This document shows, one piece after another, positions 1 through 49,749 of a stretch of 60,512 nucleotides of DNA (its first letter is position 1; each line of letters opens with the position of its first letter). The DNA comes from an uncultured Candidatus Berkelbacteria bacterium (GTDB lineage Bacteria; Patescibacteriota; UBA1384; 2-12-FULL-50-11), in NCBI GenBank assembly GCA_903839975.1, contig CAIMEH010000027.1, positions 1-60,512 on the forward strand, read 5' to 3'. The translations under genes and the position numbers were made by a program. The notes below the pieces were generated by a model. The model had not been told where the DNA came from. It made no database searches and saw nothing but the letters and a program-made list of their open reading frames with translations.

Positions 1-74
1 AGAAGGTCCCAAGGGTTTGGCTGTTCGCCAATTAAAAGGGTACGCGAGCTGGGTTCAGAACGTCGCGAGACAGT
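1..74 (+). rRNA. rrl: 23S rRNA, exon upstream of intron (domain V, truncated by window start)
   Basis: Matches conserved 23S PTC sequence GGTCCCAAGGGT...GAGCTGGGTTCAGAACGTCGCGAGACAGT, ending at the base equivalent to E. coli U2604. Confidence 0.97.
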
Positions 75-917
75 AGAATGTGCTGTCTAACGCAGCTAGT
101 TTTAGAACTAGTTGCTCTAACTGCTTGAACAACAGTTAGCTAAATTTGGCTAAATGCTGGAAACTCTGAGTATCTTGTACTACTTGTGTTACGATGGTCC
201 TAATGACCATCTTTCGCAGTGAAAATGTACCAAGTGCAGACAATCAGCAGGAAAGGCCTCAAGGCATTAATCCATGGTATATTTCGGGATTTGTTGACGG
301 CGAAGGAACGTTTCACGTTTCTTTTGCCAGACGCACAGATCTGCCCAAAAAGTGGGCAATAATTCCGGAATTCCACGTATCGCAAGACTTTGCTCGGTCG
401 TCTGTGCTCGAAGAGATTAAAACTTCCTTTGATTGCGGGCAGATTAAGCAAAATCACCGCGGTAAATCTAACGATTCAACCTACGTTTTCGTAGTGCGAA
501 ATCGCCAAGATCTGATAAATAAAATAATTCCATTTTTCGACCGATATCCGATGCGCTCATCAAAGCAGAAAGACTTTTTAGTCTTTGCCCAGATTGTGGC
601 GCTGATGGAGAATGGTTATCACCGCTCGGAAAAGGGCTTCAGGGAAATTACCTGGAAAGCTTTTCAAATGAACGGTGGTGGCAAGTATCGTAAACGAAAG
701 ATGGCGGAAATTCTTGAGGAATCCTCAGAGACTATATGCCAGAATGTGCAGGATTAAAACACGCACATAAGATATAGTCCGGACTGCATGGCGACATGCA
801 GACCCCACAGAAATGTTGGGGCGCCACGAAACTAATTTTGTGGTTTTCTCGGCCGTTGCCGAGACGAAAGGTTACAATCACGTAGCAGTGATCATGTGCC
901 TGGTAAGTAACAGATCG
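75..917 (+). mobile_element. Group I intron in 23S rRNA (insertion equivalent to E. coli 2604/2605)
   Basis: Removal restores GAGACAGT|TCGGTCC. P1: AGACAGT pairs with GCTGTCT (82-88) with U.G at the splice site. Core motifs P (AATGCTGGAAA 153-163), Q (AATCAGCAGG 242-251), R (TCAGAGACTATA 725-736), S (AAGATATAGTCC 769-780). Terminal G917. Confidence 0.93.
194..757 (+). CDS. Intron-encoded single-motif LAGLIDADG homing endonuclease
   Basis: WYISGFVDGEGTF motif, FHVSQ, IIPFFDRYPMRSSKQKDF typical of single-motif LAGLIDADG enzymes; inside the intron. Confidence 0.92.
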   Translation: MVLMTIFRSENVPSADNQQERPQGINPWYISGFVDGEGTFHVSFARRTDLPKKWAIIPEFHVSQDFARSSVLEEIKTSFDCGQIKQNHRGKSNDSTYVFVVRNRQDLINKIIPFFDRYPMRSSKQKDFLVFAQIVALMENGYHRSEKGFREITWKAFQMNGGGKYRKRKMAEILEESSETICQNVQD

Positions 918-1198
<281 letters not shown>

Positions 1199-1330
1199 CT
1201 CTTTTTTGCCAACCTACGTGTTCGCACGTAGATTTCTAGGCAGAAAAGAGAAGACAAAAAATGCTGAGGAAGAGATATCTTCAACTGCGGCTTGGAACAA
1301 CAAAATTTACTTAGAGATAAGAGGTGAATC

Positions 1331-1688: not shown

Positions 1689-2001
1689 GTTGGTGCTTTA
1701 TGCGAGCATCGATGCAATTTGCAGTTTTAATGTTGGTGTCTTATGCGAAATGGGTACACCTCTTCCCATACCGAACAGAGCAGTTAAGCGTTTCAGCACC
1801 TAGGATACTCGAGGCTAACAGCCTCCGGGAAAGCGGGCCGACGCCAACATTAAGTCTACAAATGCACACCTCTTCACATCGCGACGTAACGCAGTGTAGG
1901 AGCGAACGACCGAAGGAAGATACCGAACAGAGCAGTTAAGCGTCTCAGCACCTAGGATACTCGAGGCTAACAGCCTCCGGGAAAGCGGGCCGGCGCCAAC
2001 A
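1689..2001 (+). pseudogene. Outer, interrupted 5S rRNA copy (5' piece 1689-1706; 3' piece 1866-2001 with 44-nt insert 1876-1919) enclosing the intact 5S
   Basis: GTTGGTGCTTTATGCGAG matches the 5S 5' end; 1866-1875 plus 1920-2001 are near-identical to the 5S 3' part; differences from the inner copy are compensatory between the two outer pieces. Confidence 0.85.
1731..1849 (+). rRNA. rrf: 5S rRNA (intact inner copy)
   Basis: 119 nt; helix I TGTTGGTGTC/GACGCCAACA; conserved CCCATACCGAAC and AGTTAAG. Confidence 0.93.
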
Positions 2002-2015
2002 CTTAGAACACAAAG

Positions 2016-2046
2016 AAAAAGTCCCATTAACTTGGGGCTTTTTTTG
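2016..2046 (+). terminator. Intrinsic terminator of rRNA operon
   Basis: AAAGTCCCA-loop-TGGGGCTTT followed by T run. Confidence 0.75.
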
Positions 2047-7891: not shown

Positions 7892-7920
7892 GACCGGCCA
7901 TCTTTTTGGCCGGTTTTTTT
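7892..7920 (+). terminator. Intrinsic terminator
   Basis: ACCGGCCA-loop-TGGCCGGT plus T run. Confidence 0.85.
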
Positions 7921-7929
7921 GTTTGCGAC

Positions 7930-8022
7930 TCGTTGTAATCATTACGGACTTCGTTGTATTGACTTGATTTAACAGGTTAAAAACCTGATTTTTTCGTTGT
8001 ACTCACTTTCACTTTCGATGTA
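7930..8022. repeat. Repeat family C copy 2 (uninterrupted)
   Basis: TCG(T/A)TGTA at 7930, 7951, 7994, 8015 flanking CAGGTTAAAAACCTG. Confidence 0.75.
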
Positions 8023-8042
8023 ACGGCTTTTTTGGGATATGG

Positions 8043-8275
8043 AAAGGGCCCGGTCGATACTTCGACTCGGGCCCAAAAGGGGGATTTCGCACAGGATCAT
8101 CGCCTGTCGGTCACTTACATATAAATGAGGTCTTTCCGGGTTAGTGAAGTAACAAGTTTCCCGGCCTCTTAAAGAAGATTTCGCATAGGAATCTTTCCTA
8201 TCGGCTGTTTACCCAAATAATAGGATGCTCCCAGGGATTTGAAACAGCAAGTAACCCCAGGTCCTTTAAACTAAC
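8043..8275 (-). ncRNA. Candidate structured ncRNA with two 28-nt repeated modules
   Basis: Minus-strand promoter TTGACA-17-GATAAT (8310-8282), no ORF, several stems, GC-rich 3' hairpin 8046-8074. Confidence 0.5.
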
Positions 8276-8336
8276 AAAAGAATTATCGCATATTTAATGC
8301 TGTTTGTCAATGGTCTAAGCCTGGTTTTTACCAACC

Positions 8337-8496
8337 GAAAATCCCAGAAATTTCCGTTGGCCGTCAGTTCAATGTTGGAAATTTTGCCAGGATTTTCACC
8401 ACGCCCCTGCGGGAAGCGTGCAGGGTAGGGAGTGTGAGGGTGTAGGGGCTGCCTCGCAATTAAGCCCCTCACCCTCACAAAAAGGGTGCTTGCACA
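8337..8496 (+). repeat. Repeat family A copy 2
   Basis: ~40-bp core identical to 45313 copy; shared AAAGGGTGCTTGCACA end. Confidence 0.9.
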
Positions 8497-8578
8497 TGAA
8501 TCAATGCCTTAATCTCCAAAACATTTGATAGCGACGTAACGGAGTGAGGAGCTTTCAAAGCCCTTAATTTCGTGGGGC

Positions 8579-8653
8579 TTGACAAGCCTTTATTAGAACC
8601 GTAGTGTAACAACAGCAAGTGGAGAGAAGTGGTGAAATGTGGGGAAAAGTGGA
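8579..8653 (+). promoter_or_regulatory. dcw promoter with four MraZ-type boxes
   Basis: TTGACA-17-TAGTGT; GTGG at 8619, 8629, 8639, 8649 (exact 10-bp period), as known for MraZ operators. Confidence 0.8.
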
Positions 8654-8731
8654 TAACCCCTGTGGAAAACACTCAACTGCCTGCGGAGGGAACAATGTTA
8701 GACGCAATATACAAGGAGAAGAACACAACAA

Positions 8732-9163
8732 ATGTTAATCGGGGAGTATCAGCACAGTATCGATACCAAGGGCAGAGTCGCCGTGCCGGCCAAGTTCCGA
8801 ACGGAGCTAGGCTCATCCGCGATTGTTACCAAGGGACTCGACTCGTGCCTGTTCTTATATCCTAAAGGTGAATGGGAAGTAATGGCTAACAAACTCGCAA
8901 ATTTACCGGTGTCCAGTTCTAATGCTCGTTCGTTTGCTCGACTGATGTTGAGCGGAGCGATGGAAGTGGAGATCGATAAACAAGGTCGTGCCTTATTGCC
9001 AAGCTACCTGCGTGAGTACGCAGGTTTAAATGGTGAAACAATAATGGCCGGCGTCTATAATCGTGTCGAAATATGGGATAAAAAAGCGTGGAAAGACTAC
9101 TCGAAGACCGCGGAAGCGAACTCTTCGGCTACGGCAGAAACGCTAACGGAGTGGGAGATATAA
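8732..9163 (+). CDS. mraZ: Transcriptional regulator MraZ
   Basis: MLIGEYQHSIDTKGR, DKQGR, RVEIWD. Confidence 0.96.
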   Translation: MLIGEYQHSIDTKGRVAVPAKFRTELGSSAIVTKGLDSCLFLYPKGEWEVMANKLANLPVSSSNARSFARLMLSGAMEVEIDKQGRALLPSYLREYAGLNGETIMAGVYNRVEIWDKKAWKDYSKTAEANSSATAETLTEWEI

Positions 9164-34430: not shown

Positions 34431-34455
34431 ATGTAGAGTGCTTAGTCCTGCGCTA

Positions 34456-34536
34456 TCGCTCGGCGCTGCAAAATGCTAAATAAATTATGGCATTTTTCGC
34501 GCCTTCCGTTCGAACCTACGCTCGCTCGGTTCTCAT
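34456..34536 (-). repeat. Repeat family B copy 2, inserted in a tRNA 5' remnant
   Basis: ATGAGAACCGAGC...TTCGAACGGAAGGCGC...GCGCCGAGCGA between CAGGGTGTAGCTTAGTTG (34554-34537) and TAGCGC. Confidence 0.8.
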
Positions 34537-34557
34537 CAACTAAGCTACACCCTGCAT

Positions 34558-34775
34558 GCTTTGCAGGTCGAAGTAAAACTGAAGCCCAACTACTAACCTC
34601 AAAGTAAAGCGTCGCCCAGATTTTAACCGAACTTAGCTAACAAAAACGAGGCAGAGCGGGATCCTTTTGGAGCAACCACGGTTGCCCCAGATCTTAGAAT
34701 CGTGACGATTCTAAGCCCATCGGGTAGAACCCAAAAGTAAAGTTTGTGGTTCAGTTTTAAGTGACGCTGCAAAGC
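34558..34775 (-). ncRNA. Candidate 218-nt structured RNA (6S-like closing stem)
   Basis: Ends pair GCTTTGCAG/CTGCAAAGC and TAAAACTGAA/TTCAGTTTTA; internal hairpins; a G.U pair favours the minus strand. Confidence 0.5.
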
Positions 34776-35417: not shown

Positions 35418-35580
35418 GTTGAATATTGACCAGGTTTATTGTATTATTATACTACTTACGATCTAACGAAGTTAGAAGTGAGTGGTATAACCACGACTTA
35501 TACATTTATAACATATATAATAGCTAAGTTGTGTATTGATCTCACAGTAAGAAATATATAACTAAAAAGATAAATATTCC

Positions 35581-38153: not shown

Positions 38154-38467
38154 AGGGGCGTAGCTCAGTGGGCCGAAGCGGTAACGAGAACTAAACTGCT
38201 TTAGTTCGAGTCGCTGAGGCGGGCGAAAGTATGTTGCATACTTGCAACACTTAAGTCCCGGAAGAGCATATTAATTTAGTGACAAATGCAGGGGCGTAGC
38301 TCAGTGGTAGAGCATCGGTCTCCAAAACCGAGTGTCGCAGGTTCGATCCCTGTCGCCCCTGCATTTGTCATTCAATAGTCTCCAAAACCGTAGGTCGCAG
38401 GTTAGATAGCGACGTAGCGAAGTGGCGGAGCTATCCGGAACGAAGTGAAGGATCCCTGTCGCCCCTG
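38154..38467 (+). pseudogene. Outer, triply interrupted tRNA-Trp copy enclosing the intact tRNA-Trp
   Basis: Pieces 38154-38171, 38263-38269, 38378-38403 and 38451-38467 are collinear and make up nearly a whole tRNA-Trp(CCA). Confidence 0.85.
38290..38361 (+). tRNA. tRNA-Trp(CCA), intact inner copy
   Basis: Canonical 72-nt cloverleaf, loop CTCCAAA. Confidence 0.96.
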
Positions 38468-38468
38468 C

Positions 38469-38505
38469 AAAAAGAAAGTCGCCCTATTTGGGCGTTTTTC
38501 TTTTT
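38469..38505 (+). terminator. Intrinsic terminator after tRNA-Trp locus
   Basis: CGCCC-TATTT-GGGCG plus T-rich tail. Confidence 0.75.
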
Positions 38506-45287: not shown

Positions 45288-45312
45288 GATGTTGTTCGAA
45301 TATTTTAAAATC

Positions 45313-45474
45313 GAAAATCCCAAAAATTTCTATTGGCCGTCAGTTCAATGTTGGAAATTTTGCCAGGATTTTCACAATACGCCTGTGGCGGCGTGCGGGG
45401 GTACGGGTCGCAAGGGCCTAGGGGGTCGCCTCAAGACTAGACCCCCTGGCCTTTGCAGAAAGGGTGCTTGCACA
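45313..45474 (+). repeat. Repeat family A copy 3
   Basis: Core identical to 8337 copy; covarying GC hairpin. Confidence 0.9.
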
Positions 45475-45527
45475 GATAATATTTGTATTTATTAGAGTTC
45501 TATCAAGTCTTTTGGTACAGTAAATAT

Positions 45528-49314: not shown

Positions 49315-49749
49315 ATGATAGAGATTAATATTCATACCGATGGCGCTTCTCGAGGAAATCCAGGCAAAGCGGCAATTGCTTATGTTATTGAAGGTTTGCC
49401 GAGTGGCAAAGTTGAATTTGCCGAAACTATCGGCGAGACTACCAATAATCAGGCCGAGTACCAAGCGTTGGTGCGCGCACTAACTAACCTGTCTGAATTC
49501 TCACCATCCAACTACGAGATTAACTGCTACGCCGACAGTGAACTGATGGTTAAACAATTAAACGGCGAGTATCGGGTGAAAGATGCCTTACTTCGTCCGC
49601 ATTTTCAAGCTATTCAAGATATAGTTAAGGATTTCAAGAAACTCGGAAATAATTTTACCTTTATCGCCGTAAGGCGAGCCGAAAACAAACGGGCCGACGA
49701 ACTCGGCAATATGGCTCTGGACGATGAGAAGCGTCAAGAAATTCATTGA
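49315..49749 (+). CDS. rnhA: Ribonuclease HI family protein
   Basis: TDGASRGNPG, TNNQAEY, DSELMVKQLNGEY, NKRADEL. Confidence 0.92.
   Translation: MIEINIHTDGASRGNPGKAAIAYVIEGLPSGKVEFAETIGETTNNQAEYQALVRALTNLSEFSPSNYEINCYADSELMVKQLNGEYRVKDALLRPHFQAIQDIVKDFKKLGNNFTFIAVRRAENKRADELGNMALDDEKRQEIH

Follow-up and report, generated by a model that had tools for sequence, protein, structure and literature searches.

Two RNA genes nested in split copies of themselves

Positions 1 to 60,512 of contig CAIMEH010000027.1 of an uncultured Candidatus Berkelbacteria bacterium (assembly GCA_903839975.1), called the window below, carries the 3' part of a bacterial 23S ribosomal RNA (rRNA), one 5S rRNA and five tRNAs including tRNA-Trp, alongside protein-coding genes that are bacterial by their Pfam matches (MraZ, Mur ligases, FtsW, RecO, RecR and bL21). 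At both the 5S and the tRNA-Trp gene the order along the DNA is the same: the 5' piece of an outer copy, a short flank, a complete inner gene, another short flank, and the 3' piece of the outer copy (Table 1). A complete 5S gene and a complete tRNA-Trp gene each lie intact within a split copy of themselves, and in those parts of the literature that were searched we came across neither nested 5S or tRNA genes nor the hairpin described below. The distal piece of each outer copy, or shell, is interrupted once more by a short related sequence, referred to here as the module (copies c1 and c2), while the inner, working genes are uninterrupted.

Table 1. Features of the two nested loci and of the third module copy, with positions in the window.
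Feature	Position	Strand	Evidence or remark
Outer 5S shell, 5' fragment (5S nt 1-18)	1689..1706	+	15/18 identical to inner nt 1-18
Left flank of inner 5S cassette, inverted-repeat arm	1707..1731	+	pairs with 1850-1864 in locus fold
Inner complete 5S rRNA gene	1732..1849	+	Rfam RF00001, 68.8 bits, model positions 1-120
Right flank of inner 5S cassette, other inverted-repeat arm	1850..1864	+	folds onto 1707-1731
Outer 5S shell resumes, helix III 5' strand	1865..1875	+	1866-1875 = 5S nt 25-34, 10/10
c1, module copy in loop C of outer 5S	1876..1919	+	hairpin part 1877-1907, then purine-rich tail; 41.7 bits
Outer 5S shell, 3' part (5S nt 37-118)	1920..2001	+	80/82 identical to inner gene; repeat family D1
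Hairpin followed by T run after outer 5S, likely terminator	2020..2045	+	by eye; terminator scan did not call it
10-nt string equal to tRNA-Trp anticodon loop region, few bases upstream of c3 stem	8513..8522	+	10/10 to tRNA-Trp nt 30-39
c3, hairpin part only, upstream of mraZ (8732-9163)	8524..8559	+	repeat family D11; model match 8527-8556
Outer tRNA-Trp shell, 5' fragment: acceptor 5' strand, D arm up to G18 G19	38154..38171	+	18/18 to inner nt 1-18
Insert A, D loop of outer tRNA, ~90 nt, two hairpins	38172..38262	+	-36.4 kcal/mol, z -4.01, 0/200 shuffles as good
Outer tRNA shell, D stem 3' strand and nt 26	38263..38269	+	used in in-silico join
Left flank of inner tRNA cassette, inverted-repeat arm extending acceptor stem	38270..38289	+	cassette fold
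Inner complete tRNA-Trp (CCA)	38290..38362	+	Rfam 70.5 bits; ARAGORN
Right flank of inner tRNA cassette, other inverted-repeat arm	38363..38374	+	cassette fold
Outer tRNA shell: own anticodon arm, variable region, T stem 5' strand	38375..38403	+	38378-38403 versus inner nt 29-54: 23/26
c2, module copy in T loop of outer tRNA-Trp	38404..38450	+	hairpin part 38405-38435, then tail; 44.0 bits
Outer tRNA shell: rest of T loop, T stem 3' strand, acceptor 3' strand	38451..38468	+	18/18 to inner nt 56-73
Terminator-like hairpin with T run after outer tRNA	38480..38494	+	terminator scan

In each shell the outer pieces abut at a single point of the gene, between nt 18 and 19 of the 5S and between nt 26 and 27 of the tRNA, and the embedded cassette has flanks that form an inverted repeat, lengthening the terminal helix of the inner gene. 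Three occurrences of the 9-mer ACAAATGCA were found in the window, always at a cassette edge: at 1858-1866, where it spans the 3' end of the right 5S flank, at 38282-38290, and as its complement at 38360-38368. The tRNA cassette (38270-38378) folds at -49.5 kcal/mol, with a z-score of -7.91.

At the 5S locus, all three positions at which the outer 5' fragment differs from the inner gene are paired to the outer 3' part (nt 8 to 111, nt 18 to 61, nt 9 as a wobble). None of the five differences between outer and inner 5S disrupts a pair (U8-A111 to C-G, A18-U61 to G-C and C9-G to U-G), and helices I and II stay intact as read from the Rfam structure line. Loop B of the outer 5S is shortened, and the fold of the whole locus is not exceptional (z -0.94). 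Counted by hand on the D1 pair, 8 of the 13 bases that follow the inner 5S match those that follow the outer 5S. A terminator scan of this locus (1150-2300) called no terminator-like site.

The outer tRNA-Trp is interrupted three times, by insert A (D loop), by the inner-tRNA cassette and by c2 (T loop). Once these are cut out in silico, ARAGORN recognizes what is left as tRNA-Trp(CCA), a cloverleaf of 72 nt; a variant join, in which one base more was kept and three were dropped, gave no call. The outer tRNA is without U20, C56 and two anticodon-stem bases, and it has its own version of the anticodon stem, with A27-U43 in place of U27-A43, which ties the outer 5' and 3' pieces together as one former gene. 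The first hairpin of insert A has two symmetric GA/GA internal loops, following the same 'grammar' as the module, and BLAST found no other copy of insert A in the window. The tRNA locus as a whole takes a nested fold that the outer acceptor stem closes (z -5.55; 0 of 100 shuffles as good). Here the one terminator-like site called by the scan follows the outer 3' end. Because at neither locus was such a site called between inner gene and outer 3' piece, the two are likely co-transcribed.

The inner and outer copies appear to come from diverged alleles, to judge by their sequences: the pairing-preserving differences would fit functional alleles of related lineages, and would equally fit continuing selection on the shell. 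Short-word BLAST found no shell fragments around the window's other four tRNAs. Across the whole window Rfam 15, at gathering thresholds, matches only the inner genes and the 23S rRNA, and ARAGORN likewise calls only the inner gene; because only inner genes are called, the nested arrangement is invisible to standard annotation. In passages of PMC9297842, insertions in this group of bacteria are described in 16S and 23S genes only, with none described in 5S genes. An earlier reading of this DNA from its letters and open reading frames (ORFs), the sequence-only reading, had proposed that one mini-element interrupts an 'outer' 5S and an 'outer' tRNA-Trp. These copies are outer quite literally, with 5' fragments upstream as well, but the nesting is a larger oddity than the shared insert, and the finding, which is genuine, is more unusual than had been described. 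What the insert can mean is a different matter once the copies that it interrupts are recognized as redundant, with intact genes inside them.

A short module shared by both shells

The two inserts, c1 (44 nt) and c2 (47 nt), are identical at 34 of 47 aligned positions, a score that none of 5000 mononucleotide shuffles equalled; their tails, aligned alone, are weaker, and 129 of 5000 shuffles reach their score. A 23-nt pattern common to both has just these two occurrences in the window even with up to three mismatches allowed (expected 0.02), and 0 of 100 shuffles held at least two. We built a covariance model from c1 and c2 only and ran it on the whole window with filters off. Besides its training sequences (c2 at 44.0 bits, c1 at 41.7 bits) it recovered a third site, c3, at 29.4 bits (8527-8556, E 1.1e-4), the next match being at 14.9 bits (35454-35483, E 0.44). 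A repeat search of the window groups this same third site with c1 and c2 (family D11), and a fuzzy motif scan of the window found nothing credible besides the three. One lineage-specific sequence module of ~45 nt, known from this window only, is present in c1 and c2 as two copies that have diverged. On this point the sequence-only reading holds: its coordinates and insert sequences are as described, the element in the two loci is homologous, the alignment exceeds chance, and there is a further copy.

It is scarcely credible that the likeness is a chance resemblance, or that the loci are an assembly artefact in which, for example, collapsed strain variants were laid out as tandem near-identical repeats. 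The similarity is far beyond random by shuffles, by pattern count and by model scan, and the unique spacers, the pairing-preserving differences and the flanking inverted repeats are unlike a mis-joined assembly bubble. Two other resemblances were set aside. An 11-nt identity of c1 with 23S rRNA (E 3.4) is taken as chance, and a resemblance of c2 to a tRNA acceptor plus D arm, seen in a MAFFT alignment, is not significant, shuffles being as good in 947 of 3000 cases for c1, 116 of 3000 for c2 and 1770 of 3000 for c3.

As had been noted from the letters, both inserts lie in loops and cost the host one or two C residues: c1 stands in place of two C of 5S loop C, and c2 in place of C56 of the tRNA T loop. 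The targets are alike, TTCGATCC in the T loop and TTCCCATACC in loop C. The bases that precede the hairpin in the three copies are AGAT, ACAT and TGAT, from only two independent events and with ambiguous junctions. Neither c1 nor c2 has terminal inverted repeats, and a target duplication, if there is one, is ambiguous and no longer than 2-3 nt; in these respects the module is unlike miniature inverted-repeat transposable elements, in that c1 and c2 lack both terminal inverted repeats and a target duplication of fixed length. All three copies in the 60.5 kb are on the + strand, each in the direction of surrounding transcription.

The third copy comprises the hairpin part only. Because a 10-nt string of the tRNA-Trp anticodon loop lies just upstream of it, we read c3 as most likely a derivative of the tRNA shell copy, minus 16 nt, rather than an independent insertion; if c3 was so derived, there were only two independent insertion events. 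By eye, a 7-8 nt direct repeat (8507-8514 and 8561-8569) brackets c3 together with the anticodon-loop-like string; c3 alone is so bracketed, and the unit between the repeats is ~46 nt, which is the size of c1 and c2.

Observations of this sort bear on the idea that no self-propagating element is involved, and that the inserts, the embedded units and c3 are patches of filler templated from abundant structured RNAs or from nearby DNA during break repair or retro-insertion at heavily transcribed RNA genes. Every insertion is accompanied by one or two lost bases, the embedded units copy the very gene that hosts them, and most of the bases counted after the inner 5S recur after the outer 5S. The third copy can likewise be read as a mosaic, in which the ten anticodon-loop bases, matched at 10 of 10, are followed by the hairpin without the 16 nt of tRNA shell that would lie between them, all within its bracketing direct repeat. 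However, with 13 of 47 positions different between them, c1 and c2 were not recently copied from one template, the presence of the same module at two loci is left unexplained, and there is no polymerase-domain reverse transcriptase in the 57 window ORFs scanned, the ORF at 49315-49749 matching only RNase_H and the RNase-H-like RVT_3 family. We consider templated filler distinctly unlikely.

The occurrence of one short sequence in two different RNA genes at non-canonical positions also brings to mind archaeal tRNA introns, which are found at non-canonical positions and transpose between tRNA genes, as in the Thermoproteales, and which are spliced at a bulge-helix-bulge. Here, as there, related short sequences lie in different RNA genes, in the D loop and the T loop; several interruptions fall within one tRNA gene, the three in the outer tRNA being matched in some archaeal tRNA genes; and the cloverleaf is restored once all three are removed. 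Against this, four of the five junctions, including both module copies, are without a bulge-helix-bulge that has both cuts in bulges (within 8 nt): c1, insert A and the 5S cassette had none, at c2 the only candidate was off-register, and the lone remaining candidate, at the tRNA cassette, is weak and at chance level. The loops are one or two nt short after insert removal, the organism is bacterial by the gene content listed above, and, unlike in archaeal genes, the interrupted copy encloses an intact gene of the same kind and a 5S is involved too. Introns of the archaeal type are therefore rejected here as highly improbable.

Folding of the module and a possible role as RNA

The first ~31 nt of the module can be drawn as a short hairpin, one per copy rather than two subterminal ones, in which a stem of 4, 6 or 9 pairs closes a purine-rich interior of 18-19 nt. 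The interior is nearly invariant across the three copies and the stem varies, that of c3 being longer (nine positions, one of them a mismatch). The interior admits two folds. In fold (a), a G-A pair is followed by C-G-U paired to G-U-G over a 6-nt loop, then by a 3-nt bulge (2 nt in c3) and another G-A pair; this we take to be the order of a kink-turn, on our own reading of the nomenclature. Fold (b) is a helix that is straight but irregular, contains tandem G-A pairs and ends in a GNA triloop. On the three-copy alignment, which was guided by the covariance model, as were all of the hairpin statistics that follow from it, 88.9% of cells are paired under fold (a) and 74.3% under fold (b). The three pairs of the capped helix in fold (a) are invariant across copies.

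The sequence-only reading had described a covarying stem closed by tandem G-A pairs, and had noted that tandem G-A pairs and GNA triloops are features of stable single-stranded DNA hairpins. A short stem closing a purine-rich interior that is flanked by G-A/G-A and has a GNA triloop can indeed form, and a hairpin in the module is a plausible, if weakly supported, structural model. The covariation amounts to a single pair in either fold (C-G versus A-T), that is 1 of 9 or 1 of 12 proposed pairs depending on the fold, and 159 of 500 or 158 of 500 shuffles are as good. Nor is the hairpin unusually stable: DNA folding z-scores of the inserts lie only between -0.35 and -1.66 on either strand, and their RNA folding z-scores (-0.84, -1.65 and -2.11) are not exceptional. 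The conserved part is the interior, not the stem.

Elsewhere in the window, at 35448-35489, a hairpin with a 12-bp stem lies upstream of a small ORF, and its interior partly matches the module (35454-35483). The inner part of this hairpin has a perfect 6-bp stem and a GAA triloop; it may be a distant relative of the module or unrelated to it.

A nearly invariant interior within a variable stem is what would be expected if the module were a functional RNA element, that is, a protein-binding hairpin displayed on tRNA-like and 5S-like scaffolds, with the shells as working RNAs. The hairpin might resemble a kink-turn, as in fold (a), or take the straight form of fold (b), and the shell pieces might remain paired, once the inner gene is excised, as a tRNA-like or 5S-like particle in two pieces, or serve as a scaffold for processing or stabilizing the inner gene. 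The order of elements in fold (a), presumably that of a kink-turn, would suit such a role. The orientation of 3/3 copies on the transcribed strand and the strong folding of insert A are in keeping with it, and in the known structure of tRNA insert A (position 20) and c2 (position 56) would meet at the elbow. The tRNA locus has its nested fold closed by the outer acceptor stem and its terminator-like site only after the outer 3' end (that of the 5S locus being seen by eye only), while 5/5 of the differences between outer and inner 5S keep helices I and II.

Other results weigh on the opposite side. Compensatory change is limited to the one pair that about a third of the shuffles equal, the two incompatible folds of the interior fit about equally well, and the weak match at 35454-35483 fits the straight helix better than the kink-turn. 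Nothing stands out in the folding energies of the inserts or of the 5S locus; the outer tRNA has lost U20, C56 and two anticodon-stem bases, and the outer 5S part of loop B; no L7Ae-family protein is found in the 57 ORFs; and the pairing-preserving differences are equally explained by alleles that diverged before the nesting. The likeness to kink-turns, such as those of the U4 small nuclear RNA 5' stem-loop and the K-loops of box C'/D', is itself divided. As drawn in fold (a), the module would have the elements of a kink-turn in their usual order, from the stem through tandem G-A/A-G and a 3-nt bulge of the 3' strand to a short helix with a cap, but this capped helix would consist of only a C-G and two G-U pairs, the bulge of c3 is 2 nt, and a straight fold fits equally. 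All in all, a functional RNA module is less likely than the explanation favoured below, of which it is the most serious rival.

Relatives elsewhere and the question of a mobilizing enzyme

A Pfam scan covered 57 ORFs of the window, which is 60.5 kb of the genome, with a threshold of E<=1e-5 for transposase, REP-associated tyrosine transposase (RAYT) and Y1 families (REP, repetitive extragenic palindromic). It found no transposase, RAYT, Y1/HUH, integrase or polymerase-type reverse transcriptase domain, no L7Ae-family protein and no splicing endonuclease. Its matches of possible relevance are a LAGLIDADG endonuclease in the 23S insertion (see below) and the RNase H protein at 49315-49749, discussed above. 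Rfam scans at E-values up to 10 around c2, around c3 and upstream of tRNA-Pro gave weak unrelated matches at most, and no family for the inserts.

Relatives of the module were also sought outside the window. An exact-pattern scan of 185,579 species genomes returned 16 loci that we judge to be chance, in a search that diverged copies would escape and whose matches do not include the source genome. All 16 lie in records of 52-74% G+C, none of which is titled as a candidate-phyla lineage, and the pattern is closed by 0-2 pairs at 15 of the 16 loci and by four at the other. Phage and plasmid collections showed generic tRNA-Trp and 5S similarity only, with no record covering 80% of either locus.

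These searches bear most directly on the mechanism that the sequence-only reading had offered, in which a REP-like or IS200/IS605-derived hairpin of single-stranded DNA is moved in trans by a Y1 nuclease of the HUH type and inserted 3' of a short target. REP sequences and bacterial interspersed mosaic elements (BIMEs), mobilized by RAYT nucleases, and the hairpin mini-elements derived from IS200/IS605 are short, strand-specific palindromic units without terminal inverted repeats. The module is like them in being short, palindromic, strand-specific, repeated within one genome and devoid of terminal inverted repeats, and its G-A-rich interior is itself specific to one strand. Clear target duplication is absent, GAT stands just 5' of the hairpin in c2 and c3, and all three copies are on the + strand, which has positive GC skew over 1-35 kb, as would fit the one-strand insertion at replication forks that is typical of the family. 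Yet the TnpA/RAYT nuclease that was expected to co-occur is matched by 0 of 57 ORFs, nor is any other transposase domain. There is a single hairpin where left-end and right-end hairpins would be expected, followed by an unstructured tail, and its DNA folding is ordinary on either strand. The three copies in 60.5 kb are 72% identical with the interior conserved and the stem variable, unlike in REP/BIME families, and two of the three lie in remnants of RNA genes instead of between genes. Finally, the 16 matches in 185,579 species genomes are all G+C-rich and have a closing stem of at most four pairs. Mobilization by an HUH nuclease is, in our estimation, improbable.

Origin of the module and of the nested loci

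We favour the explanation, at a probability of about 40%, that a lineage-specific module was inserted at the DNA level into gene copies in which it is tolerated because those copies are redundant. In a first step, a complete gene unit from a slightly diverged allele would have entered the resident gene at one point (5S nt 18/19, tRNA nt 26/27), and the resident copy would thereby have become redundant. The module would then have entered as DNA, either inserted or patched in from a template where a break had occurred, at the similar targets TTCGATCC and TTCCCATACC, costing one or two bases each time, and it would persist since the inner gene supplies the function. We infer this order of events, the entry at the DNA level and the non-function of the shells.

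Several observations weigh against this explanation. The module copies are 72% identical, whereas the adjoining shell is 88-100% (mostly 97-100%) identical to the inner genes; with copies so diverged and shells near-identical, recent insertion would need several diverged sources, and none is seen. Conservation of the interior alongside a variable stem is the pattern of a protein-binding RNA motif and not of young mobile DNA, and 3/3 copies are oriented with the surrounding transcription. Terminal inverted repeats, a clear target duplication and, within the 57 ORFs, a mobilizing enzyme were not found. The keeping of ~190 and 250 nt of dead sequence in highly expressed operons would be odd if the genome is small and streamlined. 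Insert A, another interruption of the outer tRNA, is strongly structured (z -4.01), and c3 is probably a derivative of the tRNA shell, which leaves two independent events.

The nested loci have partial counterparts among known systems. Where an integrated element has left an attachment-site scar, an intact tRNA gene is accompanied by a nearby direct repeat of part of it, and this much is shared with the tRNA-Trp locus; here, however, there are both 5' and 3' fragments that abut at one point, they lie 15-25 nt from the intact gene, no integrase is found, and the 5S is arranged alike. GOLLD, a large ornate RNA with embedded tRNAs, resembles the tRNA locus in that a complete tRNA lies within a larger structured transcript, but the surrounding RNA in our case is a split copy of the same tRNA and has no Rfam match. 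Bacterial rRNA intervening sequences are excised by RNase III without re-ligation. Like such an intervening sequence, the stem-loop of c1 replaces two bases at an rRNA loop, loop C of the 5S, though in a split outer copy. A large insertion is also present in the 5S rRNA of Halococcus morrhuae (PMC7530397). In both of these systems, as in ours, an extra stem-loop at an rRNA loop leaves the rest of the fold compatible. Theirs is in the only working copy, whereas here the host copy is split by an embedded gene and the module occurs in a tRNA as well.

Taken further, the nested loci might represent a previously undescribed bacterial architecture, a gene within its own split copy, as working RNAs or scaffolds or as footprints of a selfish cassette, and not mere debris; we think this unlikely. 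In its first form the shells, with the shared hairpin and other structured inserts on them, would work as tRNA-like and 5S-like RNAs in two pieces, or would be scaffolds for processing on which a protein-binding hairpin is displayed. In its second, a selfish cassette would invade essential single-copy RNA genes and spare the host by bringing a complete replacement of its own target. Were the shells functional, there would be tRNA-like and 5S-like RNAs in bacteria that consist of two pieces, are interrupted several times and have a protein-binding hairpin in common, something that has so far been linked to archaea. If the module is mobile, this small element would prefer sequence resembling a T loop within structured RNA genes, and would be visible only where a redundant gene copy absorbs the insertion.

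Neighbouring features

Other features of the window were noted along the way. Within the 3' part of the 23S rRNA (window 1-1200), the Rfam model skips a stretch of 846 nt that holds an ORF (194-757) whose product has a LAGLIDADG endonuclease domain (E 1.2e-23). The stretch is presumably an intron that encodes a homing endonuclease, and by this intron the organism may belong to the candidate phyla radiation. In the spacer of 530 nt that separates 23S from 5S, an ORF of 96 amino acids (1331-1621) is bracketed by a 16-nt inverted repeat (1303-1318 and 1655-1670, 15 of 16 matching), a further inverted-repeat-bounded unit in the rRNA operon. This ORF was considered as a mobilizing enzyme and dropped, having no Pfam match at E<=1 and Atlas scores of at most 0.86.

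On the minus strand upstream of tRNA-Pro (34440-34570) there are tRNA-like pieces, namely a start that resembles an acceptor and D arm, and a 12-nt match to the T arm of tRNA-Tyr. Rfam calls nothing there at E<=10, and the pieces could be debris of another disrupted tRNA gene.

The surroundings of c3 hold a repeat of ~170 nt, up to 89% identical between a copy upstream of mraZ (8318-8500), which ends ~25 nt before c3, and a copy upstream of a prepilin peptidase gene (45294-45478). It forms two hairpins, in which 7 of 46 predicted pairs keep pairing through two-sided changes; the copy within the scanned interval 8200-8760 has no Rfam match. The best promoter-like site of the mraZ upstream region is on the minus strand at 8282-8310 (TTGACA, 17 nt, GATAAT with a TG; 11 of 12) and points leftwards, to an ORF-poor interval (7900-8280) with several short repeats. 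Just upstream of mraZ (8617-8665), the motif AAGTGG was seen by eye as four or five direct repeats ~10 nt apart, which resemble what we take to be the operator boxes of MraZ.

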